64,000 bases of DNA from Heptranchias perlo. Lineage: Eukaryota. The translations under genes were made by a program, and so were the position numbers. The stretch lies in the NCBI RefSeq assembly GCF_035084215.1, contig NC_090366.1:10292001-10356000 (forward strand), read 5' to 3'. Every line of letters starts with the position of its first letter. Positions within the stretch are counted from its first letter, which is position 1. Shown here in pieces: positions 13,528 through 64,000 of the stretch. The notes under the pieces are model-generated. The model was not told where the DNA came from. It saw only the letters and a program-made list of their open reading frames with translations, and did no database searches.

Positions 13528-13529
13528 TG

Positions 13530-15887: not shown

Positions 15888-16268
15888 TTGTCCATAGTTC
15901 ACGATGGTCTGTGGCGATGCCGTGGTTTGTGTCGGCGGAGAGCGGTTCCTGTGCAGAGATCCCGTGTACATTTGATTACCCCGTCTATGGCCGCAATCCA
16001 CGGGGTATGTGGTTGAAAGGCGGTTCTGATCTTCGTACCCGAGGGGTCTCTATTGTCTATGATCCCAGAGGCCCAGGCAATATACACTTTAACTATAGAG
16101 AGCGAGCTGAGTTCTGCGGCGACTTTGCAAAGAAACGCTGTTCCTTACGGATAAAAGATATCAGGAAGAGCGATGAAGGTGAATATTACTTCAGACTGAA
16201 CATCACCAACGTCCAGAATACAACTGAAGGGTACTCTTCCGGAACTTATGCTTCTCTTTCTATTTTAG
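15888..16268 (+). CDS. Gene A exon 2: Siglec-type V-set Ig domain
   Basis: tcatcag| acceptor, ag|gtacgt donor; GSCAEIPCTFDYP, W, CSLRI and DEGEYYFR give the Siglec cysteine pattern and the F-strand Arg. Confidence 0.92.
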
Positions 16269-17394
16269 GTACGTTTTTCCCCATTTTTTTCCTATTGAAG
16301 TTTATATTCCATCTCCTCAGTGGCATTTAACTTAAGTCTAGAATGGAAAGATTTCATGTTAATTCTTGGTTTACATCACAGTCTACAGCGGCAGTGCTGG
16401 TATATTGAAAAATATCCAGATTTGTGTTTTATTTTGGCTTGAACAGAAATTTAGAATTGGCATTCTTAGTAACTTATATAAGCTCCCTCCATTGTTCAGT
16501 TAATAAGTGCAATCCTGGGCGTTGTATAGACCGGCTGGTCAAAATTTGGCCCTTCATGGAAGCAGAAAAATCAGTCAAGGTGTGTCTCTCTGAAAGGAGG
16601 GTAAGTGGACATGTTCAATGTATAGGAAGGGTTTCTTGTATCGAATCACCTGCAGGCCCCCATATCATAGGGGGGGCTCATGTTTTAAAGATTGGCCACT
16701 TGGGAGATCCCAACTGGCTGCCCGTGCCAGCCGAATCAGACCCAGGAAGAGTTATCATCTTAAGGAGAGTAATGGGGCGTTTGAAGTGTCTACACTGTTG
16801 CTACATTCCCTTGGAAGAAATAAATTAATATCAATATGGTGTTCACAAGGTAAGAAGGCTTCATAAGGCGAAAAAATACATTCCAGATGGAAGACACCGA
16901 GAGGTAGATGTGAAGTTCGCTTCCAAGGAGACAGATTGTCCGAAGGTTTTGTACATTCTCCCTTATATTTTCACAGCGCATTGGTCCTAAAAAGTGCATG
17001 AAAACCAACGGCTGGTCATTTAACCAAGTAACCCTATCCAAACAAATTCGTCAAATAGCACATTCGTCACGAAATTACACTATGCCGTTCTGACCTTTGA
17101 ATGCTTAAGTTTAACTGAAATGTTAACCCATTAATAGTAGATGGGGTTAAAGCTCACTAAAAGCTCCTCTATCATGCCACACAGTAATTTTAAGGCCACC
17201 ATCATTACAAAAGGTGGAGTCACAGAAAGCAATTTCCAATCGCCCAAGTATAATTTGCAACCAGTAACTCTGACAAAATATCCGATGACCTGTGAGAGGT
17301 GACAACCCGCTGGGAAACTATTGGAAAGGTAAAACAGCGAAATTTATCCCTTTCTCCCATAAGTAAACAATGCAAGTTCACAATTTGGTTTACT

Positions 17395-17929
17395 CAATTC
17401 CCATCTTCCATCCTCCATAAACTTGAGCTCGTCCAAACCTCTGCTGCCCCCCCGTATCCTAACTCACACTAATTCCCATTCGCCCATCACCCCCTGTGCT
17501 CGCTGACCTACATCGGCTCCCAGTCCAGTATCGCTTTGATTTGAAAATCCTCATCCTTGTTTTCAAATCCCTCCATGGCCCTCGCCCCCTCCCTATCTCT
17601 GTAACCTCCTCCAGCCCTACAACCCTCCGAGATCTCTGCCCTCCTCCAATTCTGATCTCTTGCTCATCCCCGATTTTAATCGCTCCACTTTTGGCGGCCG
17701 TGCCTTCAGCTGCCTGGGCCCTAAGCTCTGGAATTCCCTCCCTAAACCTCTCCGCCTCTCTCTCCTCCTTTAAGACACCCCTTAAAACCTACCTATTTGA
17801 CCAAGCTTTTAGTCACCTGACTTAATATCACCTTATGCGTCAAATGTTGTTTGATAATCGCTCCTGTGAAGCGCCTTGGGAAGTTTTACTACTTTAAAGG
17901 CGCTATATAAATGCAAGTTGTTGTTGTTG
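17395..17929 (+). mobile_element. L2-clade LINE 3' fragment
   Basis: LADLHRLPV..FKSLHG and FKTPLKTYLF motifs; tail GGCGCTATATAAATGCAAGTTGTTGTTG. Confidence 0.85.
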
Positions 17930-18692
17930 GTATATTTCATTTCACAGAGACATTCCCTTGTGCCCACGGGACTGGTACTCAAATAAGTTGTTGAGTTTTT
18001 AATAACCTATGTCTATGCGACCATTAAGGGGATTCACAATTCTGATTTATTTATTGGTTCCAAGCCCATAGCACCAACATTACATTTCTGCTGAAGACTA
18101 TACCTACACACAGGAGTTTTTCAGGACTGGCGCCTGCTTTTTGTTTCCTCCTAAAGTCTTACCTTCAGCATCCGTTTCTTTTCTCCCAGAAGTTTTGCTG
18201 CTGAGTTCTACTGAAGAAGGAAGGGATTTACTGGTCCACAATCAACCCATCTACATTGAATGCTTTACGCCTTTTTAAAAAGATTTTCTCTCTTGCTCTC
18301 CGAAAGGCTCTGACTCGTGCTAGGGATACTTTTCGTGGCTTCTGCATGTGTGAGTTTGGGCAGTCAATGTTGTCAGTCGTTTGAAGTGTGAGATGAGTCA
18401 CTTGTTTTCATCTGACGCACAAGCAGATTCCAGTTGATGCCACTGGAAAGGGAAGAGACTGGAATTTTTGATCTTTCCCCTCTCTGAAGGTCATATTACA
18501 ACAATCCTACCGCGGCATTAAACGAGATCAGCGGACGCTTACACAACAATTAAATCCGCCCCTGACCCATTGGGTAAATTGATCTGATACCGAGCCATTC
18601 GACTAACATGGTGGCCTGAATCGCCTTGCAAACCACTCACCATTTTTCAAATTGAAATCCTCTGTAACGCGAATTTCCTTCTATCCTTATAT

Positions 18693-18997
18693 GTAAACCA
18701 CGGCTCTGGGGAATCCGTAGCTGGAAAACCAGCGCATCTGATCTGCTCAGTTACCTACAGTTGCCCGTCCGCCAAACTTGAATTGATGTATATTCATGAT
18801 TAAGGTTTTTCTTCCTTTTCTGGCAGAGGTTAAAACTCCCGGAAAAAATGGCAACCGTTTCGAGCGATCCCGGAAGGTTTCATCCACTTGCTCCTTCACC
18901 CCATCACCCGGCCATCATGGGATCAGACTGGGATGTAAATTTATGATCGACGGTGTCGCAGCTACTGTTCAAGAAACTCTAACACTGGACGTTCTAT
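18693..18997 (+). pseudogene. Gene A exon 3: damaged C2-set domain 2; 3' half (18827-18997) potentially still spliceable in frame
   Basis: Ancestral acceptor reads ttatAT instead of AG; GKPAHLICSVTYSCP and SSTCSFTP..LGCKF..LTLDVL lie in different frames; donor t|gtaagt is intact; internal cttttctggcag| acceptor is in phase 1. Confidence 0.75.
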
Positions 18998-19633
18998 GTA
19001 AGTACCTGCTTTAAGCTTCATTCGACCAACTTGTTGGTAAACAGGTTTAATAGTTGTCTTTATGCTCAATATAGTGAAAACTCGATTGGATAAGCAAAGA
19101 CTCCAACTGATTATCAGCTATTTCTTGGCAGTCTCATTATTTAACATTGAGCCATATCCATGGAGTAATATTGCTCACTCCACGGGTGTGGTTATGTCAA
19201 ATATTATTTCAAAGCCTCCCAATGCTTGATGCCGTTTTAGCCACAGAGTAACTGAGTTACATTGCTCCATTCATGGTCTGTGTTGAATTAGCTGGGGGTG
19301 GGTGGGCGGTGGGGTCGAGATGCTACAATTGGCCTCAACACCCCTGTGTGAGGGAAGGGAAAATCGACCAAGTTCTTGTTCTGGGAGGAATGGTCACTTG
19401 GTTGACGTAACGGTGGATTAGAACCTTACCCGGGCAAACAAACAAATCTTTGAAGAGAAGAGGCAACACGATGCTTATGTTTGAAACGAGCTTAAGGTCC
19501 AGGAGACAAACAAAAACAGGAGTTGGTTTTTGAATTTAGAGTTGACAAGATAGTCAACATATCTTACTTAATATTTTTCTTTGATTGTAATTACATTGTT
19601 TTCCTTCCCTTCTGCATTGACATTCACATTTAG

Positions 19634-19915
19634 CGCCAATGACCTCATCTGCTCCACATACATTGCTGAAACCAATCGTCAATTCCTCTATAGTAGCAGT
19701 GGAAGGAAGTTCAGTATTACTGTACTGCACGGCCCAGGGTAAACTACCGGTCAGTTTAAGATGGGTGAGAGATGGTTCGGAGATCAAAATGTCTTCCACC
19801 GGTGAACTGAGGCAGATATTTCACAACATTAGTTCCAAAGATGACGGACAATATTGGTGCGTGGCTGAAAATATCGTGGGCAAAGCAAACAGCTCCACAC
19901 AGATTTCTGTACAAT
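19634..19915 (+). CDS. Gene A exon 4: C2-set Ig domain
   Basis: KPIVNSSIVAVEGSSVLLYC..W..DDGQYWCVAEN; donor t|gtaagt; the AG acceptor at 19632-33 is in phase (start position less certain). Confidence 0.85.
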
Positions 19916-20114
19916 GTAAGTGCGGTGTGAAACTACCTTCATTCTCTATATTATGTTCATTTACTGAAGTTAAGCGCGCTGTTGTACAAAATCATTATCA
20001 AAACTCGTAGACTGGGAGTGGAGTTAATCATTTCCTATTATTCCCACTGATATTTGGAAAGCTAATCTCCCTCACACCCGATTCTGTTGAGGGTCAAACG
20101 TAACATAAAAGTAA

Positions 20115-20185
20115 CATTGGCGCATGGCTGGAGATAACATGGGGACCGCAAACAGCTCCACGCAGATTTTTGTACAACGTTAAGT
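20115..20185 (+). pseudogene. Relic 3' end of an extra C2 exon
   Basis: HWRMAGDNMGTANSSTQIFVQ followed by a decayed donor; compare YWCVAENIVGKANSSTQISVQ in exon 4. Confidence 0.65.
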
Positions 20186-20859
20186 ACAGTATGAACCTAT
20201 TAAATGTATGAAGGGACATCAATGATCCGTTCCACAGTGACTACGCATGGGTCTCATTTCCCCCGTGTTCACACAACTCTCTCAATAGCCGATGTCAGTA
20301 ATATTCTCAGAAAGGCCAGTAAAAGGAAAACAATTTGACCACATTCAGCGCGTAAAAAAACACCGTTAAATACCAACCAGAGACCCCAATGCACAAATCC
20401 AGCTAAAATGTATCTCAGATAGGTTAAAACCAATTGAATTAATATGCGAGATGTGGAACGCTAGAATTTATGGGCGGAGGCACTGACCCCAGCGGCCCTG
20501 AAGTGGAAGAACACGTTAGTCCGTCACAAAGGTAGAAATTTGGAACATTGAATACAAACTGATTAAAATGTATTGAGGTTTTAACTCGGGCATCCCTCAC
20601 AACATGGACCAGGCGATGTATGGATGAACTGACTGCTCAGTGGCTCGATAGGAATTTATAGTTGAGTTATTGACTTGCTAGAAATTAGGAAAAAAGAACG
20701 TTTGATGAGCCATTAAACAAGTGTAACAACGAATGGTTCCTGTTAAACACAGGTGTGCAGTAACCTTTCTGGTTAGTCTAAAGGCCAAATTGGTTTCACT
20801 TAGACACTGCAAACTGCTTGATGAAAACTTTGTGAAGTTGAACTCTTCTCTTTGTTTAG

Positions 20860-21147
20860 ATAAACCTACAATAGTTTCAGGCCCGACCTGCATCAGTTCA
20901 GAGAGTGGGATTCATTGTACCTGCAGTGTCAGAGCCAAACCCCCAACAAATATCACATGGGGCCTCAATGGAAGAAACATCACTAGGTACAGTTCAGATG
21001 GTGAAGTTGTCTCCTGGGCAGTGACTGGTCACCTGGTGCAGAGCTCCCTGATATTGATTCACCCAACTAGAACCAGAAACCAGATCTCATGCGTTGCAGC
21101 AAATGTACACGGCGTTAGTGTCGGTAAATATCAGCACCATTTAGCAG
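20860..21147 (+). CDS. Gene A exon 5: membrane-proximal Ig domain
   Basis: tttgtttag| acceptor, cag|gtaagt donor; KPTIVSGPTC..CTCSVRAKPPTNITW..ISCVAANVHG. Confidence 0.9.
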
Positions 21148-22413
21148 GTAAGTACAGACATTTCCTTCAATTTAATTACTGTAAATGGATTGGTCCATCA
21201 CTGGCCCGTCACTAAGTGTTGGTGTCAGCAAATACCAGCTCCATTCGGCAGTTAAATACCAAATCCATCTGCAATTTAGGACAGACCCATTGGATAATTT
21301 AAGTAGTGTATAGGTATGGTCCGCCATTGAGCACTAACTCATTCAAAGTTTGGATTGGAATAATACATTTTATATTTGCCTGTGATTTGCCGGGTTTGTT
21401 TATTATCGCCTTGTTTTCACCAAGATCGGAAGGGATTCGTATGAAACAGTATAAGTAGCGTGCGATCGTTAATAAAACAGAAGCTTCTGAATTAATTACA
21501 CTCTTTATGAATTCAGGTTTCCTCTCATTATAAAGGCAGCGAGCTCCAGCCTATCATTCAATTAATACATTCTATATTGTTCATATAGTTCAACAAAACA
21601 ACTCTTAGAGCTATTTCAGACTGGCCCTGGGATTGTTGCCCTGGAGATATTCTGAGAAGGCTAATGATTTGGATAATCATGGAATAACTGGGATAATTGA
21701 ATAACCAGATTAGAGACTGAAATGAAATACCGGATAGCAAGCCAATAGACGCTTACGGGCAATGTGAATATTTGAACCCCCTCGGGATTGGAGAATTAAT
21801 TGTTTAATGGGCTTTTTTTCAGTCCTCAATAACATCCATTCAATGTGGATGTCATCCTAGTAATATAAATAACACACCATGTGAGAGGGGTTGTTTGTTG
21901 CTTCGTGACGCGTTGCATTTTACCAAGTGTCCCAGTTGCATTAAAAAGATTCCGAATGTTTTACCGAGGCAGAGGTGTATTCCGTGAATTGTCCGTGTAC
22001 ATTTCTCTTTCCGTGATTTGATATGAACGGAACAGATAGGAATTTCATCTATAAATATTTACTTTAAATTTACACAGGGCACACAGGAGTAAAACGATGG
22101 GGGAAATCCAGTGTCAGTTCATGGAGAGAGTAATCAGTTCAAATGCTGCCCTGTCCATTTTCTGTGAAATCCCAATAAATTAATTAAGCACATTGAGGAT
22201 TTTTAGGGGGATTAGATTTGGGATCATTTTCAAATCCTCTGATCGCTGGGTCAGAGCCCTCAGTTTTAAGAAATGGATAGGAAACCTTAGACTCTTACTT
22301 TTAAGATGTGAATATATAGGAAACTTGCCTATACAGGCGGATTAAAGTTATCCTAATACCATGTTGTAATCTTATAGCAATAACGAACAGTAAAGTCTTT
22401 TTGAATATTTTAG

Positions 22414-22501
22414 GAACATTTCCCTGTAGGAACATTGTCATCTCAGTAGTAGCAGCCGCCACCTTTATCATTCTGATTCTGATCGCGGTGATGGTACGGA
22501 G
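22414..22501 (+). CDS. Gene A exon 6: transmembrane segment
   Basis: ttttag| acceptor, GTFPCRNIVISVVAAATFIILILIAVMVR, ag|gtatgt donor; phase 1 to 2. Confidence 0.85.
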
Positions 22502-22609
22502 GTATGTGTGGCTCATCATTATTTGAACTCTTGTGATAATCACAGATTTGAAAGGGGTCCATGACATCAGGATTCCTGCCTATGAGAAACTATTGTAGTA
22601 AACAATGTC

Positions 22610-23470
22610 GAGAATAGCAACAGACTTCAGGAGGACATGGACAGACTGGTGAAATGGGCAGACACATGACAGATGAAATTCAACGCAGAGAATTGTGAAG
22701 TGATTCCATTTTGGCAGGAAGGATGAGGGGAGGCAAAATAAATTAAATGGTGCAATTTTAAAGGGAATTCAGGGACAGAGAGACCTGGGGATATATATAC
22801 AGAAACATTTGAAGTTGGTCAGGCAAGTTGAGAAGGCAGTTAAAAAAGCATATTGGATCTTAGGCTTTATAAATAGAGGCATAGAGTACAAAAGCAAGGA
22901 AGTTATGCTAATCCTTTATAAAACACTGGTCAGGCTTCATCTGGAGTATTGTGTTCAAATCTGGGCACCGCACTTTAGGAAGGATGTCAAGGCCTTGGAG
23001 AGGGTGCAGAGGAGATTTACCAGAACGGTCCCAGGGATGAGGGACTTCAGTTATGTGGAGAGACTGGAGAATCTGGGATTGTTCTCCTTAGAGCAGAGAA
23101 GGTTAAGGGGAGATTTGATAGAGTTCAAAATCATGAAGGCTTTGGACAGAGTAAATAAGGAGAAGCTGTTTCCAGCAGCAGAAGAGTCGGTAATCAGAGG
23201 GCCCACATTTAAGATGAATGAGGCGACGAGAGGAAACATTTTTTTAACGCAGCGAGTTGTTATGATCTGGAATGCGCTGCCTAAATGGGTGGTGGAAGCA
23301 GATTCAATAGTAATTTCCAAAAAGGAATTGGATGAATACTTGATGGAAAAAAAATTCAGGATTATGGAGAAAGAGCAGGTGAATGGGACTAATTGGATAG
23401 CTTTTTCAAATAGCCGGCACAGGCACGATGGGCCGAATTACCTTCTACTGTGCTGTACCTACTACGATTT
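22610..23470 (+). mobile_element. CR1 LINE 3' fragment
   Basis: ORF with LYKTLVRLHLEYCVQIW..RRLRGDLIE; CR1 tail. Confidence 0.9.
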
Positions 23471-24380
23471 TATTGCTTCAAATAATTAATCCTTGAGAGC
23501 ATTGAACCTGAAACTCAGTTAAGAGTTGTGAAGGGAACAGTTATTGGAGGTCAATTGCTTCCGTAGGTTAAGTGGTAGATTGTCAGAGGGTTATCGTCCC
23601 CTGGCCGGTCAATCGCTTTTCCCCACACCAATAACAGATCAGTAGCTTTCGCTTCCAAGTCAAAAGTTTGTGGGGGGGTTCCAGCCTCAAAACAAAACGT
23701 GAGCACCCACTGTAGCCTGACACTATAATGGAGCGGGGCATTGTGGGCGGTGCCGTTTTTCTGAAAAGGTAGTTGGCCAGTTAACACACTACATAACAGT
23801 CCCGGTTGCAATTTAAAAAACGTTAGGATATTGCAGGAAACTCTTCCGACTGCTCTTTAGGCAACATGTTAAGCCAATATCTGCAAATCTTGTCTATTTA
23901 ACAACGTGTGAACGCACCGCGTGAACTACTTTTCTGCTACTTAATAAGGTGTTAATTTGTCTGCAGTTCAAAGACAGTGTTAATAAACAATAAGACTACC
24001 CCGATATTTAATAGTGTGCACACACTGGATAAATCTCATCTATTTGCTATTCAAACAAATTGTTATCTTAGTGTGCAGAACTCCTGTGATGGTTATTTGA
24101 ACAATTGTTAGCAATCTATCTACAAGTGTGATAAAATACTGATCTTTTCTCCAAGTGCAGACTGCACTAATTCATTAACCAGCTGCATGGGATAGAGAGA
24201 AATCGTTATTCGGAAATATGGAAACGTAAGGATAGAAAGAAACTGGAATGAAATCTCATCTATACTAATCCGGAAATGTTATACACACAAGTCCCTGATG
24301 ACGCAGGGCAACGTAAGATTTATTAGCCTTAATGATAAGCACTTATGTAATTTGCATTACTTGATTTTTTTTTGAATCAG

Positions 24381-24468
24381 GAAGAAGACAAGTGACACCG
24401 TTAATGTCCCCCCAACAAACAGCAATTCAGTGCCTTATGCTGTGGTGCAGCACCCGTTTAACACTGAG
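24381..24468 (+). CDS. Gene A exon 7: cytoplasmic, ITIM-like VPYAVV
   Basis: tttgaatcag| acceptor, RKKTSDTVNVPPTNSNSVPYAVVQHPFNTE, |gtaact donor; phase 2 to 0. Confidence 0.82.
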
Positions 24469-25491
24469 GTAACTGAGGGGGTGGATATTGTTAAGCGTCC
24501 GCTGGAGTTATCTGCCTGATATTTGCTCTGTTTGTAACCAGTGGGTATCACATTCAACGCCTAATCCAATGGTTGAACGGGTGCTATAGAAACTTGTTTG
24601 GTGGATTTTTTTAAGGGTGCAATGGACATCCCATCCTAATAACAGGAAGTGATGCGTTGATCACGTCCTGGTAAATCGGCCATTGACATTTTCCCTGTAG
24701 GGGAAATCAACGTCGGCCGAAGAGAATCGTTTTCCCGTGTCAGTGCACAGTATCGGGAACAATTCTTACGCTCACCTCCCCGTGACATTAGGACCGGTGG
24801 TTTAAAGTCTCAGCATGCTCACACAGTGTGAATGGTCTGAGAAGGGCCAAACCGCATCTGGGATTATCTGCATTTTCCTGCCTGGATTTTATGCCCCCAA
24901 TTTATTGACGACGCCTTGCCATATCCACCCCCCGACTCCCTCCCAAACCCGAATTAAATCATTGTCTGGCCCGCGGGCTGAACCGAATTTTCGTACAGCA
25001 GAAGGCCACTGCTGGTGCTCCGCAGGAATGATCCCCAGCCGTCAGGTAAGGTTTGGCAGGTTGGATGGGGGGCGGTTGCAGGGGGTTAGGGGGAGCCCAC
25101 GGCAAGGGAGCCCCAAGTTTTCCTTATGGAGCCAGAAAGAGCAGTCCTGCCCCGCCTGGCCCACAAGGGAACCTAAATAAAAATTAAAAGCTCTCTGAGC
25201 TTTTCTGGTCACAATTCAGCTCCCGACAGGTTTGGCCTGGTGGCGAAGCCGCCACGTTTCCCCCGCTCAGGCCTTAGGTTAAAATGACGACCGGGCTCCA
25301 ATGACGTCCTTGGAGACCAGTCTGCATATTTAACAAAGATCCCACTTGCCTTGTGATGGGGAAACTTGCCACCTGCAATTTTAAATTACAGGCGGTCAGA
25401 TCCGGGCAGCAAAGTTGAAGGTAAGTCCCTAACTGTATATTACTGCCCTGCCTAGTTTCCGCCAGGAGGGTCAGTTAGAATCGGAGCCTAA

Positions 25492-25670
25492 GGGGTAATT
25501 TTAACCTAACTCGCCAGTAGGAAGCCCACGGGATCGGGTGGAACGCCCGTTTTCAGCCCACCCGATCTTCGTCTCCGTTGACCTAAATAGAGAGTAAATT
25601 CTGGCGGGATGTAAAACTTGCCTCCGATCCCGCCAGTACCCCGATGGTTGGGTTAGGTTCAAATAACCCC
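25492..25670. mobile_element. MITE-like inverted-repeat element
   Basis: Termini GGGGTAATTTTAACCTAAC and GGTTAGGTTCAAATAACCCC; flanks TAA and TTA; internally palindromic. Confidence 0.6.
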
Positions 25671-25904
25671 TTAAATTAGTGTTAGCCTGGCTGAGTTGGC
25701 AGCGCCCACGCTCTGATTCAGAAGATTGTGAGTTGAAACCCCAATCACATTTATGGACCTTCATCGAGAGTGTGATTGGGGAGTAGCACAGAGGAAGTGC
25801 TGCATTCCTGGAGGTGCCGTTTTCCAGATGAGAGCTTAATCCAAGACCCTGGCTGCCTGAACTAGTCATTCAGATGAAGGTTAGAAATCTCATGCACTGT
25901 TACA

Positions 25905-26515
25905 GAGAATTACATAGAATTTACATCACAGAAAAACGCCAATTAACCCCAACCGGACGTTTATGCTCCACATGAGCCTCCTCCCACCCTACTTCATCTC
26001 ACCCTATCACCACATCCTTCTATTCCTTTCTCCCTCATGTGTTTATCCAGCTTCTCCTTAAATGCATCTATGCTATTCGCCTCAACTACTCCTTGTGGTA
26101 ACGAGTTCCACATTCTCACCACTCAAGTCTCTCCTGAATTCCAGATTGAATTTATTAGTTACTATCTTATATTTTTGGCCTCTAGGTTTGGTCTCCCCAC
26201 CAGTGGAAACACCTTCTCTACGTCTACCTTAGCAAACCCCTTCATAATTTTAAAGGCCTCTACTAGGTCACCTCTCAACCTTCTCTTGTCCAGAGAACAG
26301 AGGCCCAGCCTGTTCAGTCTTTGCTGGTAAATATATCCACTCTGTTCTGGTACCATCCTTGTGAATCTTTTTTGCACCTTCTCCAGTGCCTCTATAACCT
26401 TTTTTAAAATATGGAGACCAGAACTGTGCACAGTACTCTGATTGTGGTCTACCCATGGTTCGGTACAAATTTAACATAACTTCTCTGCTTTTCAATTCTA
26501 TTCCCCTCGATAGAA
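25905..26515 (-). mobile_element. CR1 LINE 3' fragment
   Basis: Minus-strand ORFs LEKVQKRFTRMVP and RRLRGDLVEAFK. Confidence 0.88.
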
Positions 26516-26920
26516 TAGGGATTTCTCCACATGTGGTGGTTAAAATTACTCCAATCACCACCAAAATTGGGACTAGTTTAGTGGTATAAACTGGGCGACA
26601 TGGACATGTTGGGCCGAAGGGCCTGTTTCCATGTTGTAAGCTTCTATGAGTCCATGAAAATGGATCGCCAGGTCATTTTACTCATTTGCTTTCACTGTGG
26701 GCAAATTAGCTGATGCCCTTTAAATATAATCCGTTGGTTACAAGGCGCTGTAATGTGGTGCTATGTAAACACCAGATATTTATTGTATTATAACTTAAAA
26801 TACTTTACTCAGTGAATAGGGTTAGGGCAAGAATGATGGAATGAAGCGGGTTGTTATGCTACAGAAAGCGCTCTCTCAGCCGGCAGCAGCTCCATATCTA
26901 ATTCCTACTTTCTGTTACAG

Positions 26921-27088
26921 CGCCAGGGCCACTATGCAACCATGGGTGTTAGAGGGGCTACACCAAAGCAATCAGCTCAAGGAGAAGATGTTCTGTACGC
27001 AGCTGTCAACGTTTCAAACGTTCGCAAACATGAAGGCTATCTCCAGAATGAGGAGTTCAGTGAATACGCCGCAATTAAATTTAAATAA
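26921..27088 (+). CDS. Gene A exon 8 (last): ITIM VLYAAV and distal SEYAAI motif
   Basis: ctttctgttacag| acceptor, RQGHYATM...EDVLYAAVNV...EFSEYAAIKFK*; phase 0; AATAAA at the stop and at ~27358. Confidence 0.85.
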   Translation, partial: RQGHYATMGVRGATPKQSAQGEDVLYAAVNVSNVRKHEGYLQNEEFSEYAAIKFK

Positions 27089-27685
27089 AAATCCTGTATA
27101 ATTTATTCCATTGGGACAGATGGAACTTATTAATATCTTAACACAATTGGTTTTATGAGCTAGAACAGAAACTTCACATTACAGGAGCTGCTGTGATAAT
27201 GGACATCGTTCAGAGATTAATTGCGAACATTTTATAGTTTCTTTGCGAGAAAATTTGATTTCCAATCCCAAACGTGTTTCCTTTCCAACTACTCTTCCGA
27301 AGTGGAGCAAGAAAGGGGCTTTAACGATCAATGTAAATGTAACATTTTATCTGCTCTAATAAAATAACTGTTTTCATAATTCAAACGTTGTTTTCATTTA
27401 GGACCACTCTCTGCTGCCTTATTAAATTTCCCCGTCGGACAACGTCCACTGTCTCTCTCCGCGGCTGGGTTACTTTGCACCGTCTCCCAGCCCAGTGTAA
27501 CAAAGTTCACCTTAGTGCCAATTTCCATCAGTTCCCTTCAGGACAACAGGCAGGCTCTCATGAATATTTACGGTCATTTGAGCCACATCATGCAGAAGGG
27601 AAGGCATTATAAAGGGTGGGTCAGGGTGTTTGGCGAATCCCTAAAGTAAGCCTTTCAGCTCTCGACTCATGCTTAGAAGTTTTAA

Positions 27686-28499: not shown

Positions 28500-31400
28500 T
28501 GTATGAGGCTCATCCGATCACTTCACTGTGATCTGTAAAGTAAGATATCAGTTGAGTCTTGACCCCAGCTCCATGGTAGCAGTAATACGGGCCTCTTAGC
28601 TCCTACCGGCAGAATTAGTTTGAACTGATTCTGTTTCTCAATCAAATAGCAAAGGCGACTAATGCTTAATGTGGACAGGTTTCGATTGATTTTCCCGACT
28701 GGATCCAGAATTTTGTTTCAATTGATCAATTTAAATTCACGCAGCTAAAAATATCCATTTTATTTCGAGTATTGACACTCGAATCTAAAAGCTCAAGTCA
28801 CACGCCCCAGATCTAACACTGAATCATAAACGGGGCGTTGTAGCCACTGGGATATTAATGAGTTAATTTTAAACAAATCTCATGTCCCTGAAGTGTGAAA
28901 ATAACCAGTTGAGGTCACTTCTAAAAATGTCAGTTTACCCGTGTGAAACTGTTTTTTGTCAAACACTTATGGACCTTTGACATTTCAGATACGTGTTAAG
29001 CCTCGAACCACTGAACGTGATGAACCTACATGTCTGTGCACAGCGGCTACATAACTAACCACACCATGGCATTCAAAGGGCATTGGCAGCTAAGCAGCTA
29101 AACATGTGGGAGATAAGAGGCTAAAGATTGTGCATAAGCTATTTTAGATATTCAAATCTGAAATGTTAGTTTCTATCCTGTAACTATTTGACTGATGTGC
29201 GGGGCGAGTAACTCTCTGATCGAGAGCCTTTGGCGCTAGGTTGATCTTATCATATCCAGTAACTGTGAGCCACATATAGATGTCCTTCTTATTTGAACGG
29301 GCCGAGAGTGCGAGCAGTTATGGTCACTGGCAGTGAATGAATTTCACAGCTTTGTGAGGCAACACAGTTCACAGTGATTGGTAGGTGCCCACCAGCTGAT
29401 CTCCCGCTACTCGGATTCGATTATAATTGATTTCCAAAATAATCCAGAAACTTGATTAGTCTTAAATCCGACTGAGATAATTGTTTTTAAAAATGTTTAC
29501 ACCGTTAACCGTCCATAGTGATACAGAGTGAAGTTTGTTTCTCTCATCCTGATATTTAACGAAGGTAATGTGTCCTTTTTAATCGTTTCTGCTGGAGGCG
29601 ATTTCCAACTTGTGGAAAACTAAGAAAAAAGAGTTATAGAAATAGTTCATGGTTAGTTAGTGATTCGTAAATTAACGAAGAGGACATTTAATGAATATAA
29701 TATTCGGAACTTAATTCTGATTTAATAGGATTTATTGAATACTTAATGGATGCTTTATTGGGTTCCAATGGAAATTTTAATGGAATTTAAAGAGCTTCAG
29801 TGAGGATGTCGTGAATTTTAGTAGTTGATTAAAGAGTAATTTAATAGTATTTAGCCGGAATTGTAGGGAATGTTTTAATTGGTATATTATTGGCGATCTC
29901 AATGGGTGGTTAATTTCTATTTCTTTATCAGTTGTCCATAGTTCAGGGTGGTCTGTGGCGATGCCGTGGTTGTGCAGGCAGTGAACGGTTCATGTGCAGA
30001 GATCCCGTGTACATTTGATTGTCGCGTCTACGGCTGCATTGAACGGGGTATTTGGTTAAAGAGAGATTCTCAACCTCGTACCCGAGAGGTCTGGATTATC
30101 TATCATTCCAGCATTCCATACAATTGGCAATTTAACTATAGAGGGCGAGCTGACTTTGCAAAGAAACAATGCTCCTTGCGAATAAAGTTCACCAGGCAAA
30201 TATTACTTCAGAGTGAAGGTCAAAAACGCCCAGAATACAACAGAATAATACTCTTTCAGATCGCATGTCACTCTTTGCATTTGAGGTCAGTTTTGTTTAT
30301 TCCTTTTGTACTTGCTGTTCCATCTCCTTAGTGTCATTTAACCTAAGCGTAGACTGGAAAGATGTAAACTTCTGTCATACATCACTGGCTACAGCGGCAC
30401 GGCGGGTGCATTGAATATACCCAGCTGTGTTGTTATGTTTTGACTTCAACAGTAGTATGATCACCTCTAACCACCTGGTCTCGCCACCTCCCCTAGCATT
30501 CAACGGCATTACCATCGCCGAATCCCCCACCATCAACATCCTGGGGGTCACCATTGACCAGAAACTTAATTGGACCAGCCATATAAATACTGTGACTGCA
30601 AGAGCAGGTCAGAGACTCGGTATTCTGTGGAGAGAGACTCACCTCCTGACTCCCCAAAGCCTTTCCACCATCTACAAGGCACAAGTCAAGAGTGTGATGG
30701 AATACTCTCCACTTGCCTGGATGAGTGCAGCTCCAACAACACTCAAGAAGCTCGACACCATCCAGGACAAAGCAGCCCGCTTGATTGGCACCCCATCCAC
30801 CACCCTAAACATTCACTCCCTTCACCACCGGCGCACTGTGGCTGCAGTGTGTACCATCCACAGGATGCACTGCAGCAACTCGCCAAGGCTTCTTCAACAG
30901 CACCTCCCAAACCCGCGACCTCTACCACCTGGAAGGACAAGGGCAGCAGGTACATGGGAACAACACCACCTGCACGTTCCCCTCCAAGTCACACACCATC
31001 CCGACTTGGAAATATATCGCCGTTCCTTCATCGTCGCTGGGTCAAAATCCTGGAACTCCCTTCCTAACAGCACTGTGGGAGAACCGTCACCACACGGACT
31101 GCAGGCGTTCAAGAAGGCGGCTCACCACCACCTTCTCAAGGGCAATTAGGGATGGGCAATAAATACTGGCCTCGCCAGCGACGCCCATTCGCCCCATGAA
31201 CGAATAAAATATATATATATCATAGGCTCGTAAAGATTGGCTAATTGGGAGTACCCATTGGCTGCCCGTACACGCGGAATCAGACCACCGTCATCATCTA
31301 AAGAAAGTTATTGATGTGGAACTCGCTAGGCAAGAAGAAGACTTTATAGCGCTTACAAAATACAACCCAGGTAGAGGACACATACAGATAGATATGAACT

Positions 31401-34450: not shown

Positions 34451-34624
34451 TCAACTATGTTTAATATCTTCATAGAGACTCGTCTCTTTGTCATGTACAT
34501 ATCCATGCCCTTGAGGATTGGTTGAAAAGTGCACAGTGTGGTAATTAATTTCTTCGATCTGCTGAGTCGAATTGGATATCAGTTCCCCGACGTCACTGTC
34601 TGGATCATTCTCACAACCTTCTCT
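34451..34624 (-). CDS. Siglec-like gene C last exon: ITIM INYHTV and distal SLYEDI
   Basis: gtgttgcag| acceptor, REGCENDPDSDV...EEINYHTVHF...ETSLYEDIKHS*; phase 0. Confidence 0.82.
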   Translation of the reverse strand, partial: REGCENDPDSDVGELISNSTQQIEEINYHTVHFSTNPQGHGYVHDKETSLYEDIKHS

Positions 34625-35790: not shown

Positions 35791-36470
35791 ATATTCCAAG
35801 AAGCTGCTTTAACTTAAATACAATTAGTATTTGGAAACAAAAACTGAGGGGGGTGGGGGTAAGACTTACTCTGATCTCTCTTCCCTCTGCACTCTGTATG
35901 TTAGCGACGTGTAAATATAGTTATTGCAGCGAGTTCGAATGCAAGTGTAGTTTCTGGTTGCGACCACTAGGTGTCGCGGTCCTCTGTATTTTATCCCGTG
36001 ACACACTGTCCGCATTCAGGTCGAATTTCTAATCTGGCTTGGGCACGGTTCTCGGGTTTTCAATTGTTCGCTGGGATCCAGTGGACATTGTTCCCCCGTG
36101 CGCAGTGGATGTCAGTGTGCTGAGTGCTCACAGTTGTGCTCGGTCCTGTGCTGAGCCTGCGATGACATGGACACGCTGCTCAACCGGGAAGGGCTCACTC
36201 CGCAGTGATCATAAATGGTCTCTGCCGTTTAGCACAGGAGCATCGTGGCCATTCACAGCGCGGCCACTGTCAGCCTGGCACAGACCTGAGATTGAAGATT
36301 GGACCATCTTACAATTGCCCTCAGACCCAATCTGATCTAAACCAGCCAGGTAATTAAAATATTCCAATTAATCCATTGGGAACGTGAAAGGCACTATATA
36401 AATGCATTTCGTTGCATTCGTCTTTCACGTGGCGACAAGGGTATCGTATGAAGCTTAACTCAGCAATTAC

Positions 36471-36558
36471 CTTCTCGGGCCGCGAAAACCGTGCAATAAC
36501 GTCCGTTGTATCATCATCGTCCAATATCGTGCGTCGAGAGACTTTCTTTCGTTTGTTC
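36471..36558 (-). CDS. Gene C cytoplasmic exon 1
   Basis: ttttagcag| acceptor (NAGNAG), KNKRKKVSRRTILDDDDTTDVIARFSRPEK, |gtaatt donor; 88 nt, the same size as gene A exon 7. Confidence 0.78.
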
Positions 36559-38064
36559 CTGCTAAAAACGGAGTTGAATAAAATCACTAATTTTGACTTA
36601 AGAATAACACGCCTCTAAATTCAATGTTTACAAACTGTTCTAAAAACACCAGGGTGGGGGTGATTCCTGTGGTTACTATTTGTAGTGAAATCGAAATCTG
36701 CTCTTTGGACCGTTTATAAATTCGATGGAAAAGAGAACCATTTTACCCCTATAGTTACACTGAGGCAAAACGGGCCATAGCAAATGATCAGCCTATTTCC
36801 ACTCCTGCCTAATTTTATTTTACATTTAAGTCTATCGACTCGCAATCGCCCAATTTGACCTATTGCCCAAGACGGATTTTTACCTCCCAGCCTGCTATTG
36901 TAATGAGCAGGTAACTTATTTGAAATTAACACGACAGCCCGCAAAGGAATTTCACGCCAACATGTTAAGCGTTCCCGGGCTAACATTCACACAACGCCCT
37001 TTTCGGGCCATCTGTGGCTGTGGCTTAGTTATCATCTATAAGGCTGAGCAAGCAATCAACCAAAAGCACGGATAGCAGATGGCTCAAGGGGTTTATATCC
37101 GCGGTATGTTTCATTCTGTCATAAAGGTAGGTCTTTCTTTGTTTAATTATTCACTACAGTAGAGTTAAGTTTTAAGGGGCTACACTGCCAACGCCAAGTA
37201 AGTCAATGTAATGGAAATAAAACAGGTGAAGATTGATGGTACGTTTTTGTATTCCACGTCAACTGCCACTGCGCTCCTCCTCCGAGGATATCAACCCTAC
37301 AGTTTCTCACTGGAGTTGTAATCTCAACTTGAAGAATCAGATGGAGCCTTGTTTTCACTTCTCAAGTGAAAGATGGCACCTCTGCCAATCCAGCATTCCC
37401 TCAGTAGGGCACTGAACTGTCAGCCTAAATTATATGCTTAAATCCTGAATTGGGCTTGAATGCACAAACTGAAGAAAGAACTCAGAGGAATTGGACATGA
37501 CCGGTTTTCAATAGTTCCTTAGCATCACTGGATCTGATGTAGGATGAGTGATAGCTCGTGAGAATCAAGCAATCATGGCATTTAGCAACACAGAAGGAGC
37601 AATCGTCCCATCTTGCCTATACTGGCCCTCTGAAATAACTATTTATTTATATCCAATCCCTTGATTTTTATCCCTGCCCTTTCATATTATTCTGTTAAAT
37701 ATATATCTACTTTCTTTTTAAAGGTTATTAAAGACTCTGCTTCTACTTCCGTTTGTGGTCTGTCAGAAATTTCATATCCCAACATCACTAAGCTTTAAAA
37801 ATGTTCTACTAATCGTTCTTTAGGTGACAACCTTAATTTCATGGCTTGGAGTAAGGATTATCAAGAAAACTACTTTCGTTCAATAAATAGGTAACACATG
37901 AAGTGACAGCTGTTGAAGCTATTCGTAACTTGAGAAATTCAATCACAGATTGATTATTGTCCATTCAACCCAGAGTTTCTCCAATTGAACCTCACTAACA
38001 GGCATCGAGTCGGATAATTACGGATTAGTTAGAACAGCAACTAGAATCTTGAAATATCACTTAC

Positions 38065-38158
38065 TTCCTGAACATCCTGGTCACAAATATGGCTACAAGG
38101 ATAATGATAATCACGGCTGCTGCTCCGATTCCTAGGTTCAATTTCCAAAATGATCTTC
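38065..38158 (-). CDS. Gene C transmembrane exon
   Basis: ctttag| acceptor, GRSFWKLNLGIGAAAVIIIILVAIFVTRMFR, aa|gtaagt donor. Confidence 0.87.
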
Positions 38159-40354: not shown

Positions 40355-40612
40355 ATTCTACAGAAATCTGTGTGTAACTGTTTGCTGTGCCCAGGTTATT
40401 TTCAGCCACGCACCAATATTGTCCATCATCTTTCAAACTAATATTATGAAATATCTCTTTCAGTTCACTGGTGGAAGGCGTGCTGATCACTTCGCCATTT
40501 CTCATCCACCTTACACTGACCGGTGGGTTTCCCTCTGCCTTGCAATATATATACAATGAGCTTCCTTCCAGCGCTACTATAGAAGAATTGACCACTGGTT
40601 TCCGTGGTGCAT
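40355..40612 (-). CDS. Gene C Ig domain 5 (C2)
   Basis: APRKPVVNSSIVALEGSSLYIYC..DDGQYWCVAENNLG; phase 1-1. Confidence 0.92.
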
Positions 40613-41835: not shown

Positions 41836-42096
41836 ATTCTACAGTGATGTACATCCAGCTCTTTGCGGTGCCATGTTTATTGCTTGCCTCACACTGGTAT
41901 TCTCCATCATCCTCATATTTTATGTCAGGAAAGTTCTTCGTTAGCACATTGTTTGAATAGGAGCTGTTAATCGGTTCACCGTCTTTCATCCATTGTAAAT
42001 GAGACTCTGGTTTACTGCGTGTGATGCAGTATATGAACACGGAACCACCCTCCCTTACTGTCAATGAGCAATTAACCATTGGTTTTGAAGGTGGAT
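41836..42096 (-). CDS. Gene C Ig domain 4 (C2)
   Basis: PPSKPMVN..VFIYC..W..DDGEYQCEASNKHG; phase 1-1. Confidence 0.92.
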
Positions 42097-44930: not shown

Positions 44931-45191
44931 ATTCAACAGTAATGTTTATGGAGCTGACAGCAAACCCGTGTTTATTTGTAGCATTGCAGAAATACTGCCC
45001 TTCGTTCTCAAATGTAATGTTGGAAAATTCTGTCTTCAAAATATTGTTTGAAGACGTGTCGCTGACAATTGCACCGTCCTTTATCCATCCTAAGCTGGAC
45101 TCTGGGTTACTTTGTGTTGAACAGAGAATGAATGCAGGTCTGCCCAACAGTATCACCGATGTGGAATTGGCCACAGGCTCGGTTGGTGGGT
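44931..45191 (-). CDS. Gene C Ig domain 3 (C2)
   Basis: ttgcag| acceptor, YPPTEPVANS..FILC..W..NEGQYFCNATNKHG, t|gtgagt donor. Confidence 0.92.
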
Positions 45192-47613: not shown

Positions 47614-47937
47614 ACTGGACGTCCAATGTAATCATTTCTTGAACCCCGTGTGGGTGTCCTCCAAGCTGAATCTCACAGCCAATCATTTTACGGTCATGCT
47701 GACGCAAGGCTGTAAATATTAGCACAGAGGAAACTTTCTGTGATCCTTTCCAAACCGGATTGTCGAAACCCCTGTCGATGTCTTTACGTTCAGTGGTCAA
47801 ATTCGCAGCAGTCAATTCGCTGACCATAATCCATTTTAGATCAATTCTGGCATCAGGGCAACTGTGAACCAGCGAACACGTTACGCTCGCTGCTTGTCCA
47901 GCAGTGATTTCTTCGGACACTGATATACTGGGCTTCT
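47614..47937 (-). CDS. Gene C Ig domain 2 (Siglec-type C2 with CxxxHSCP)
   Basis: cttatag| acceptor, EKPSISVSEEITAGQAASVTCSLVHSCP..W..IGCEI..ITLDVQ, t|gtaagt donor. Confidence 0.92.
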
Positions 47938-50253: not shown

Positions 50254-50607
50254 CAAAAACGGAAAGAAAGACGGGATCAGAGCGATGCCTTTTGCCGTCG
50301 AATGTTGCTGTGACGTAATATTCACCCCGATCTTCATTGCTGACGGGATGTATCCAAAAGGAGCATCCCATTGAATTTTGGATCATCAACCCACTGCGAT
50401 GTCGATATGCAGGGTCAACTGACTCTCGTCGTCTCGAATTGAAGAGGGTGGTGACTCCTGGTTCATTGGGGTTAAACCCTCCCTTTAACCACATCCAATT
50501 CATTCCAACCAATGAATGACCAGTGGTACAAGGAATCACCACACAGGAACCAACCAACACTGAGAGTTGTTTTGGCACCTGCACTGACCATTGTCCAATA
50601 AGAGCGG
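50254..50607 (-). CDS. Gene C V-set Ig domain (Siglec cysteine pattern, no F-strand Arg)
   Basis: ttctacag| acceptor, AALIGQWSVQVP..GSCVVIPC..W..GCSF..EDRGEYYVT..LSVF, g|gtgagt donor. Confidence 0.9.
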
Positions 50608-51596
50608 CTGTAGAAACAAATGAGAGTCGTTAAAAGATTTAAAGGATAGATGTCAAACTCACCACTCAGGGCGGAAAACTGGCGCCGTGTGTCGTCCACC
50701 CCTTGTAGAAACCGGCCGATTTTAATTTCCATTAGAAATGAAAATCAGGTGCTTTCTCTCACAGGCAGCAAATCCGCAACGCTATTTTCATGCCCCGGCA
50801 CAAGATGAAATTCGACCCCCCTGTTCTTTATGTTAAATGTAATTATATTTTAAAAAATCCTGGGCATGAATGGCATTAAATGAAAGAGAGTGAATCACCC
50901 TCTAGGAGGCTTCCGATTTGTTTTTAAAATGGCGGTTTGAACAAATACTTGCAAGACCTTTAAGGTAGAAAAACATCACAGACGTGGGGGTCAATTTTCA
51001 ACTGGCTCTTTCTTCGCCTTGTGCATTCACCCCTCTCTCTCGCTCTCCCTCAGAGGCGATCATTTTAATTTTGAGCCATGGTGTAAATCTGTTGATATCG
51101 GAAGGACCGATTTCCATTGATCTCAATGTGATGGTGAGTTGGATCGAATCAAAGGTCACATAAAGGTCTCGGAGGACCAGGGGGAACAATGCATCATGAC
51201 ATGTCAATTGCGAGTGTTTAGGGCCATTTTTATGTTGTGGGGGGTGAGGGGAGGGGAATTGAAACAGGAACATACTGTAGAACAATTACAACTTGGTAAA
51301 GCAGCAATTGGGAATGAATTATCGTTGTGTGATCTCTCAGGTCCTGTAAAGTGTTAATTAACTTTGCTGAACATATTCTATCTTGAACTTAATAATAGCT
51401 AACTTATCAAAGAACTCTTTCAGAGAATTTGGCTTGTGTTAGTTCCAACATTAGAAATCTCCACTCTTTTTTGAGGATGTTGTTGTAACACAATGAAAGC
51501 AGGATACCTCCTCTCCCTCAAGACAAGGTAAGCCTTGGCGTTTGGCCAACCCGATTAATGTAGATTGCACATTCGTTTTAAAAGGAATAGGAGAAG

Positions 51597-53514: not shown

Positions 53515-53563
53515 CTTCGATAAACCGCAGGGCAACGAGGAAGAAAAATGCAAAGCACTTCAT
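53515..53563 (-). CDS. Gene C signal-peptide exon MKCFAFFFLVALRFIE
   Basis: ATG, hydrophobic core and GAAG|GTACGT donor; phase 1 fits the V exon. Confidence 0.8.
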
Positions 53564-54159: not shown

Positions 54160-54730
54160 ATTAGATTCCAGCCTGTAACTGACTCCCGGGTATCTGTTAT
54201 TCTATATATAAACTCCCCGAACCCCTCGATTAGATCCAGCCTGTAACTGACTCCCGGGTATCTGTTATTCTATATATAACCCCCCCGAACCCCTCGATTA
54301 GATTCCAGCCTGTAACTCACTCCCGGGTATCTGTTATTCTATATATAAACCTGCCCAAACCCCTCGATTAGATTCCAGTCTGTAACTCACTCCCGGGTAT
54401 CTGTTATTCTATATATAAACCTGCCCAAACCCCTCGATTAGATTCCAGTCTGTAACTCACTCCCGGGTATCTGTCATTCTATATATAAACCACCCGAACC
54501 CCTCGATTATATTCCAGCCTGAAACTGACTCCTGGGTCTCTTTTATTCTGTATATAAACCCCCTGAACCCCTCGATTAGATTCCAGGCTGTAACTCACTC
54601 CCGAGTATCTGTTATTCTATATATAAACCCCCCTAACCCCTCGATTAGATTCCAGCCTGTAACTCACTCCCGAGTCTCTGTTATTCTATATATAAACCAC
54701 TCAAACCGCTCGATCAGATTCCAGCCTCTA
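54160..54730. repeat. ~70-bp minisatellite, ~8 copies plus decayed tail
   Basis: ccctcgatta recurs at 54291, 54361 and 54431. Confidence 0.95.
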
Positions 54731-55980
54731 AACCACTGTCAGGTTTTTATTAATTTGCATATAATCCTTTCGAAACTCTTCATTAGGTTTCAGTTTGCGA
54801 CCTACACTTAGTTGTCCGTTTTTCTATATTTAAACAATCCAAACTCCTAGATTGGATCCATTCACTAATACCCGTGGCTGGTATCCAGGCTAAAACTCAA
54901 CTGCTTTGGATTTCACTGGAAATATGAATTGGAGGTAATCTTCAGGAACCTTTAATTGTGTCAGTGTACACAGCACCCAGTGCCTCTATTGTCTGTTACT
55001 CTTAAAACAGTCCCAGTTCAACAGCGCTACTGCAAAAGCTTGAAGTTTGAATTTGTTCGCGCTTTTGTCGCCTCCCTCTGAATTGCTGACAGTTTCATCC
55101 TGAATTAAAGATGACCCATTTTGATCTTTGCACCCAGTCCCTATCCTAACCTGCATGGCACTGCTCAAACTCTTCATATCAAATCCTTACAGCCACCAAC
55201 GAGACTAGATTCAGTCACATATTACACGGTTTGTTTGTAACTGGTCTATGTAGGGGAGGTAAAAATTGTTAATCTCACTTTGCAGTTCCAGTGTCCCTCT
55301 GCCACAATATTAAAATACATGTGTTCCTTTGCTCCATTCAGACTATTAATGAGTTAAAGTAATCTACACACTTCTCCTTGGTATAATGTTGATTCCGCAT
55401 TTCCAACATACAGCGAACCAAGGTTTCCTGTTGAAACGTCAAATCCAAAATTATAATCGATGAGCTCAAAGTTTCGTTCAAGTGACACAGACGGAGTTCT
55501 TCTTTTTGGTTAACCGAGTTTTGTGTGCATGCCACGAAATGGAAATTTGCAAGCCTTGAAATAGTATTGCATGATAACAATGTACAAATAAAGACCTGGT
55601 TTTGAAATGGTACTGTTTGATGGTTGTGCACGAATAATTTGCTAGCATTAGAATAAAACAGTGTGATATTAACTTAGAAATACTAAGCTAGCCTTCAAAT
55701 GATGGTGTGTGACCATAGTACACAAATACACAACTTGAAATGACTCTGTGATAATCGGTAGACACGACAAACTGGTCTTCAAATGTCACTGGGTCGGAAT
55801 AGCATAGGGATACTATTGAAAATACAATGGGGTAGATTTTTAACTGGAGCACGGGATGGATATTGGCGTTGCCGATTGACCGCCGGTTATAAAACCACTG
55901 AATTTTAATTTCCATTAATTATAATGGAATTACAGCACTTTATATAACGGGCGGCTGAACCACAACCTGCAGTGCATTAT

Positions 55981-63309: not shown

Positions 63310-64000
63310 CTAATTATCTAAAAAATTAACAATTTGTTTAATTGGATATTTCACCATTTTCTTTAACTCCTCTCTGAATTTAGTTTGGGTCACTGCATAA
63401 ATAAACGTGTTTGTGCAGCAGCTCAAAAGCAGGAGCATATATCCGGTTTCTTGAAGGATATAAACCGGGTCATTGTAACCCGTGAACGAATAAGTCTTAG
63501 TAATTCGATAATACAAGTAATGGACTGTGTACGTCAGCCATAACAGCATAAAATTACCGGATATACTGAAGAGCAAAATAATGGATTTTTTCCGGTTCTC
63601 CATTTCAGGATCTGGATTCTCTTCAGTGCTCGTGTTGCCCCGCAATGCCCTGCGGACTCTGCTGGCCACTAATATATATCTTACGGTCAGAGCATTAAGT
63701 AGCAAAATAACAAAAAATGGCAGAAAAGGGGTCGCGATGCAGTCGAAATAAGAAAATGCTAGCCATAGCCGTGAAGTATAAAAGCTTGATCTTATCCGGC
63801 AATACCACGGCAATTTGTTAATTGTATACAGAGGTTCATACACAAAGTACCAGGGGATGTTTTTTAAACAGCTCAGAGCAATCACCGTGCCAACAACCGC
63901 AGCTGCTGTTTCCTTCGTACAATATTTGGTTTTCAGCTTCGGGCAACAAATGGCTGTAAAGCGATCAAAGGTGAAAGCGACTGTTGACCAGACAGAAAAG
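63310..64000 (-). CDS. Class A GPCR, GPR139/GPR142-like (TM3 to C-terminus; 5' part outside window)
   Basis: The frame stays open to the window edge: FSVWSTVAFTFDRFTAICC.., TM5 TPFLPFFVILLLNALT, DPEMENRKKSIILLFSIS, TM7 LSCCTNTFIYAVTQTKFREEL. Confidence 0.88.
   Translation of the reverse strand, partial: FSVWSTVAFTFDRFTAICCPKLKTKYCTKETAAAVVGTVIALSCLKNIPWYFVYEPLYTINKLPWYCRIRSSFYTSRLWLAFSYFDCIATPFLPFFVILLLNALTVRYILVASRVRRALRGNTSTEENPDPEMENRKKSIILLFSISGNFMLLWLTYTVHYLYYRITKTYSFTGYNDPVYILQETGYMLLLLSCCTNTFIYAVTQTKFREELKKMVKYPIKQIVNFLDN

Follow-up and report, generated by a model that had tools for sequence, protein, structure and literature searches.

Gene C, on the minus strand of the window analysed here (64,000 nucleotides of the Heptranchias perlo genome, contig NC_090366.1), is best explained as an intact, single-copy, six-Ig inhibitory receptor of the Siglec type, which would recognise a non-sialic ligand, probably a protein, and would signal through SHP-1/SHP-2. 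We put the probability of this reading at about 0.58. Sequence comparison confirms that the canonical sialic-acid-binding arginine of the F strand has been lost in C, where Thr116 occupies its position. Since the build is that of a Siglec and this defining arginine is absent, we file C as Siglec-like: by its sequence it is Siglec-like by descent, and not a Siglec by the binding definition. The features of C and of two paralogues in the window are the following.

15888..27090, plus strand: paralogue A; V exon keeps the Arg, second Ig exon broken, later exons in frame
29914..30294, plus strand: paralogue B; V exon remnant, frameshifted, 74% identical to A
34451..34624, minus strand: gene C exon 10; ITIM INYHTV, ITIM-like SLYEDI, stop
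36471..36561, minus strand: gene C exon 9, cytoplasmic
38065..38158, minus strand: gene C exon 8, uncharged transmembrane helix
39524..39814, minus strand: gene C exon 7, membrane-proximal Ig domain with an extra Cys pair as in MAG Ig5
40355..40612, minus strand: gene C exon 6, Ig domain 5
41836..42096, minus strand: gene C exon 5, Ig domain 4
44931..45191, minus strand: gene C exon 4, Ig domain 3
47614..47937, minus strand: gene C exon 3, second Ig domain, which has the additional Cys for the D1-D2 disulfide
50254..50607, minus strand: gene C exon 2, Siglec-type V-set domain; Cys38, Cys43 and Cys98 present, F-strand Cys absent, Trp23 kept
50282..50293, minus strand: Lys122-Arg123-His124-Arg125 of gene C, predicted strand G; hairpin register taken from predicted secondary structure
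50309..50311, minus strand: Thr116 codon ACA of gene C at the canonical sialic-acid-binding Arg position, from alignments and reads of one sample
50354..50392, minus strand: Gly89/Met91/Trp101 of gene C, specific to the C orthogroup and kept in 4 of 4 members; outward orientation deduced from strand alternation
53515..53563, minus strand: gene C exon 1, encoding the signal peptide, with an ATG and a phase 1 GT donor

The ten exons of C, described in the earlier note as open and in phase, indeed have AG/GT ends and consistent phases, and they translate into 718 amino acids with a single terminal stop; an identical 718-residue sequence forms the tail of the database protein P0001. The product begins with a signal peptide, followed by the V domain and five more Ig domains; a membrane helix without charged residues leads to the tail, which contains INYHTV and SLYEDI. 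An N-terminal V-set domain followed by five Ig exons is the Siglec layout, and the type I build with both tyrosine motifs, which are matched in all three orthologues, is that of an inhibitory-type receptor. Cys38, Cys43 and Cys98 align with those of MAG and sialoadhesin, Val stands at the place of the F-strand Cys, and domain 2 contains an extra Cys; as aligned, C has the predicted Siglec cysteine pattern of a B-E intra-sheet pair and an additional Cys for the D1-D2 bond. The V domain was matched in Pfam to Ig_CD22 (E 1.1e-4) and V-set (E 1.6e-3), neither match reaching the curated cut-off, and an Atlas search returned generic V-set clusters (CD200, nectin, CD22-like).

Several peculiarities of the locus were observed in addition. 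Exon 9 (36471-36561, minus strand) is 15 residues longer than in the orthologues and contains an acidic run. C ends 14 residues earlier than the orthologues (34451-34410, minus strand), with both tyrosine motifs kept; a similar tail can still be read in the DNA behind the stop, which marks the stop as a later change. Tandem arrays occupy 4673-13528 (a 50-bp satellite), 34630-35793 (24 bp, ending right before the acceptor of the last exon) and 54160-54731 (69 bp, upstream of C), and a GPCR reading frame of the rhodopsin family lies within the Siglec-like cluster at 63313-63999 on the minus strand (7tm_1, E 2.4e-12).

On the minus-strand exon 50607-50254 the F strand reads DRGEYYVT in C, against DEGEYYFR in A and GKYYFR in B, exactly as first noted. 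In alignments and in profile searches of shark V domains, Thr116 shares a gap-free column, anchored on the D-x-G-x-Y-Y motif, with R118 of MAG and R97 of sialoadhesin. Structure prediction of the V domain, which the earlier note had proposed as a check along with inspection of the residue in orthologues, gives the same picture: the AlphaFold2 model (pLDDT 91.4, 24 sequences) sets Thr116 on strand F (E94-102), and its closest folds are those of sialoadhesin and MAG. The contigs of the four runs examined out of seven listed (two DNA and two probable RNA, single sample) show no alternative letter at the Thr116 codon; the latter two runs, X5 and X6, are guessed to be RNA, no listed run being on record as such. 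The contig of run X5 aligns to 50254-50609 with an unaligned overhang at both ends, the very span that a spliced mRNA would match, and the DNA contigs extend into both introns. On the evidence of these contig edges, the V exon is very probably spliced.

Orthologues of C were identified in white shark (P0002), basking shark (P0003) and horn shark (P0004), and none came from carpet sharks, ground sharks, rays or chimaeras in searches limited by shared words or by 50% clustering. Together with C they form a clade with 100/100 support in a full-length tree of 18 rows. Gene order around C agrees in horn shark, and synteny is also supported by two database models, P0001 and P0010, which fuse C and its horn shark orthologue, respectively, to an upstream Arg-less paralogue in the same order; P0001 includes part of a GPCR as well. 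The critical residue is Thr in the horn shark orthologue too, in a near-identical hairpin context, and Arg in the white and basking sharks, where the hairpin is rewritten. Among 11 hairpin positions, seven are unique to basking shark, one to horn shark and none to C, three differ in all, and the lamniform stem is long (0.41 in the full-length tree). Because the changes are thus concentrated in basking shark and on a long lamniform stem, we favour the scenario in which the common ancestor of the sevengill and horn sharks already had Thr and Arg came back in lamniforms along with the rewriting of the hairpin. The sevengill sharks lie in one and the horn sharks in the other of the two main shark divisions, whose split dates back more than 200 million years. 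The scenario draws on three sampled lineages, for which parsimony scores a loss plus regain and two parallel losses alike (two steps each) and ties the state at the base of the cluster as well. The branching order of the three lineages has support of 66/49 in the full-length tree, the V-only tree (38 of 63 rows used; the long unrelated row P0040 and three duplicate rows were dropped) joins C with lamniforms, and the alternatives are not rejected.

Two other placements of C were tried. A tree joining C with the neighbouring Arg-less clade was rejected (p-AU 0.009), and so was one joining the C group with the MAG-like rows P0006 and P0072, unnamed database proteins labelled by their likeness to MAG (p-AU 0.0005); in both cases the group was named after the tree had been seen. 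The loss of Arg in C appears, in these sequences, to be separate from that of the neighbouring clade.

The remainder of the sugar-binding site was analysed in the same group. The A-strand aromatic (Trp2 of sialoadhesin) corresponds to Trp23 in C and is also Trp in horn shark, and it is Arg in basking shark. For the G-strand aromatic (W106 of sialoadhesin, Y127 of MAG), no Trp, Tyr or Phe was found at +4 to +13 after the Thr116 position in C and all three orthologues, and His124 of C stands at its inferred place. The lamniform Arg is accompanied by no G-strand aromatic and, in basking shark, by no A-strand Trp either; as the G-strand aromatic is missing in all four members of the group, even the Arg-bearing lamniform orthologues have a degenerate site. 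In MAG, each of the mutations R118A and Y127A is described as abolishing binding of the ganglioside GT1b (PMC5150538). The general statement made earlier, that loss of this Arg abolishes binding, holds for most Siglecs and has to be narrowed, since binding without it is possible for Siglec-6 and, reportedly, for MAG and Siglec-11 (PMC12953582).

The absence of two features of the site, the Arg and the G-strand aromatic, is among the grounds for favouring a non-sialic ligand for C. Sialic-acid-independent ligands are known for Siglec-5/14, namely streptococcal beta protein and Hsp70, as described in PMC6288428 and PMC13358205. In the proposed mechanism, the canonical site of C would no longer bind sialic acid, ligand binding would cluster the receptor, and the tail tyrosines would be phosphorylated and recruit SHP-1/SHP-2 as in other Siglecs. 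Against it stand the lamniform orthologues, which keep or regained Arg, and the case of Siglec-6, which binds glycolipids with the Arg mutated. The earlier note had likewise proposed an inhibitory receptor with a non-sialic ligand or a relocated binding site; the inhibitory architecture and the lost Arg agree with this, but two of the three basic patches named as candidates for the relocated site fail. NSRRRE is kept in none of the three orthologues. In YRHRS only Arg87 is kept, and it is a family-wide residue (155 of 193 other V domains). Residues of the Arg87 type form a salt bridge to the Asp of D-x-G-x-Y. The third patch, GKRHRS, survives in part: Lys122-Arg123 is common to C and horn shark alone, but Arg125 is Pro in horn shark.

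This last patch is the core of the strongest alternative, which we consider possible and still unlikely: C would bind sialylated or sulfated glycans at a shifted anion site, with strand-G Arg123 (together with Lys122 and Arg125) replacing the F-strand Arg. Arg123 is predicted on strand G (E105-108), and judging from the predicted strands it would lie on the same face as Thr116, at the place of R127 in Siglec-10 and K129 in Siglec-6. The former contacts the sialic acid carboxylate (bioRxiv 10.1101/2025.06.10.658867); the latter, which has the same +7 spacing as Arg123, is reported to add to binding in Siglec-6, a protein that binds glycolipids even with the Arg mutated (PMC12953582). These two Siglecs resemble C in having a basic strand-G residue near the canonical site, but both keep the canonical Arg, and in the same bioRxiv account R119A abolishes binding by Siglec-10 though R127 remains, so that the second Arg fails to rescue the mutant. 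Both Thr-bearing lineages of the C group have Arg at position 123 and keep the A-strand Trp, and the Arg-bearing lamniforms have Met there. This looks like a swap, but it amounts to one contrast among three lineages, and a basic residue before the G-strand aromatic is also found in Arg-bearing relatives, namely sialoadhesin (R105) and the loci L041, L043 and L045. Since Arg-bearing relatives often have such a residue, that of C may be inherited rather than compensatory. The loss of the G-strand aromatic, the Pro at position 125 in horn shark and the net charge of the V domain (+3 in C, -1 in horn shark) also speak against a shifted site.

A different surface is suggested by residues invariant in the C group and rare elsewhere: Trp54 occurs in 0 of 190 other V domains, and Ser88, Gly89, Met91 and Trp101 in 2, 3, 2 and 0 of 193, respectively. 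The alternation of side chains along the strands would leave Gly89, Met91 and Trp101 pointing outward on the opposite sheet from the sugar site, as a candidate patch for contact with a protein or with domain 2. The new contact surface of C is weakly predicted to include this patch, but the patch around Trp101 could instead pack on domain 2. The full chain of events, in which C gave up sialic acid before the split of the sevengill and horn sharks, moved its contact to the Gly-Met-Trp patch, and Arg was regained in white and basking sharks, is offered as a speculative sequence with the odds well against it.

The genome of H. perlo contains many relatives of C. Among 31 genome matches, only C itself exceeds 36% identity, and the gene is single-copy. 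We examined 37 Siglec-like V exons, 27 open and 10 broken, these counts being lower bounds with weak matches on other contigs left out. Eight of the open ones are without the Arg: C (Thr), L032 (Phe), L033 (Ile), L034-L036 (Ser), and L047 and L048 (Tyr). Hence C, singled out earlier as an intact gene lacking the Arg, does lack it but is not the odd one out. The neighbouring Arg-less shark clade (L032-L036; P0008 and P0071 in horn shark) shares with C the gene cluster, the MAG-like build, the tyrosine motifs and the missing Arg, but it is an orthogroup of its own, has several copies and shows Ser, Ile or Phe at the site. Across the shark cluster as a whole, R, T, S, I, F, A and K are found at the Arg site. 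Other changes at this site in cartilaginous fishes are Ala in P0033 (horn shark), Thr in P0100 (catshark) and Lys in P0045 (zebra shark), and a stingray multi-V protein, P0017, has both Lys and Ser. Similar sets of Siglec-like V exons, many of them broken, are located at 3.44-3.65 Mb and 10.24-10.47 Mb of G000:C45, a pattern resembling birth and death. A genome search with a MAG-like V domain yielded no close MAG V exon; its best matches, L047/L052 and L048/L051 (G000:C45, about 13.64 and 13.70 Mb), reach only 40% identity and have Tyr at the Arg site.

Both paralogues in the window are damaged. The second Ig exon of A (about 18688-18999, plus strand) has a frame break and lacks AG at the expected acceptor; the exons flanking it are phase 1, and skipping it would preserve the frame. 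In B, GKYYFR is in a different frame from the upstream V sequence, which identifies B as frameshifted, and no A exon after the V exon was matched behind it.

Constraint on C was assessed by comparison with horn shark. The V domain is 63% identical between the two species, and the five other Ig domains are 65-75% identical. In a neutral simulation to 60-69% protein identity (substitutions only, a rough control), none of 1000 frames stayed open. Neutral evolution of C, which the earlier note had named as an outcome that would count against its proposal, is contradicted by this result together with the V-domain identity and the shared Thr, and from the sequences gene C is judged to be under constraint. 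Within the window, where paralogues alone can be compared, omega is 0.45 for C domain 5 against A domain 3 (82 codons) and 0.2 for C domain 3 against domain 4, the latter with saturated dS; both estimates are weak.

The conservation of the V domain bears on another reading, to which we give a somewhat smaller chance than to the shifted site: C would have no dedicated outside ligand and would give a tonic brake, or act through cis partners or its own dimer, with the V domain kept for folding and spacing, as proposed for human Siglec-XII. This protein cannot bind sialic acid and yet recruits SHP1/2 (PMC11343606), the residue at the Arg site is free to vary within the shark cluster, and C has a membrane-proximal domain like Ig5 of MAG, which is described as dimerising through Ig4-Ig5 (PMC5150538). 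However, the V domain has group-specific invariants and a level of conservation close to that of the other Ig domains, more than a spacer should need. The last alternative, in which the Thr codon would stem from an assembly error or a private allele, or C would be in early decay, is highly improbable and largely refuted, because DNA and probable-RNA contigs agree on the codon, Thr is also present in horn shark, and the frame and motifs of C are intact, even though ACA is one base away from an Arg codon, many copies in the cluster are broken (10 of the 37 V exons examined) and the tail is 14 residues shorter than in the orthologues.

The reading of C as a Siglec-type inhibitory receptor with a non-sialic ligand was further compared with known systems. 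The V domain of sialoadhesin (Siglec-1; 1qfo and 1oda) is the top match of the C V-domain model (Foldseek E 4.7e-10, TM 0.82); in a second fold comparison it has Z 16.9 and rmsd 1.9 over 107 aligned residues, with MAG tied within 1 Z unit. The Trp2 equivalent is kept in C, but R97 is replaced by Thr, W106 is without an aromatic counterpart, and C has ITIM-type motifs. Sialoadhesin has far more Ig domains than C and lacks an ITIM. MAG is the best solved match both of the orthogroup ectodomain by profile (E 5.5e-67) and of the horn shark orthologue model by fold (E 5.7e-37). The likeness extends to the V plus C2 layout, the Cys residues of the D1-D2 disulfide and the extra membrane-proximal Cys pair, reported in MAG as C421-C430 (PMC5150538). 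C differs in having six Ig domains rather than five, Thr at R118, no aromatic at Y127 and a single Trp in the A strand in place of WxxW, a C-mannosylation motif that the same source describes as conserved in MAG from fish to human. We rejected C as the MAG (Siglec-4) orthologue on the absence of WxxW, the six Ig exons and the tree, in which C does not group with the MAG-like rows.

Siglecs lacking the Arg are known from primates: human Siglec-XII (R122C) and great-ape Siglec-5/14, in which Arg is changed to His or Tyr (PMC11343606, PMC6288428 and PMC7379906). As in C, the canonical Arg is replaced and the ITIM signalling motifs stay. The primate changes are recent and partly polymorphic, and null alleles of SIGLEC12 are common, whereas the change in C is common to two shark orders and affects a conserved single-copy gene. 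The analogy with Siglec-XII drawn in the earlier note therefore fits the residue but not the history, C having the look of a long-conserved gene. In the literature searched (main texts only, with most subscription journals outside the coverage) we found no paper on Arg-less shark Siglecs, and sharks are absent from the main text of a fish-Siglec paper (PMC7226832).

Arg-less Siglecs in print are mainly recent primate accidents; here the change is found in a conserved single-copy shark gene, and it recurs across the cluster. What is particular to C is that its orthogroup is distinct and single-copy, two shark orders having Thr and a third having Arg, and the set of Thr, Thr and Arg orthologues offers a ready comparison for establishing what an Arg-less Siglec binds. 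If the favoured history is true, loss and regain of Arg would make a natural loss-and-reversal series at the residue that defines Siglecs. The loss in a conserved shark gene, together with its recurrence in the cluster, suggests that Siglec-type inhibitory receptors left sialic acid more than once, early in jawed vertebrates.
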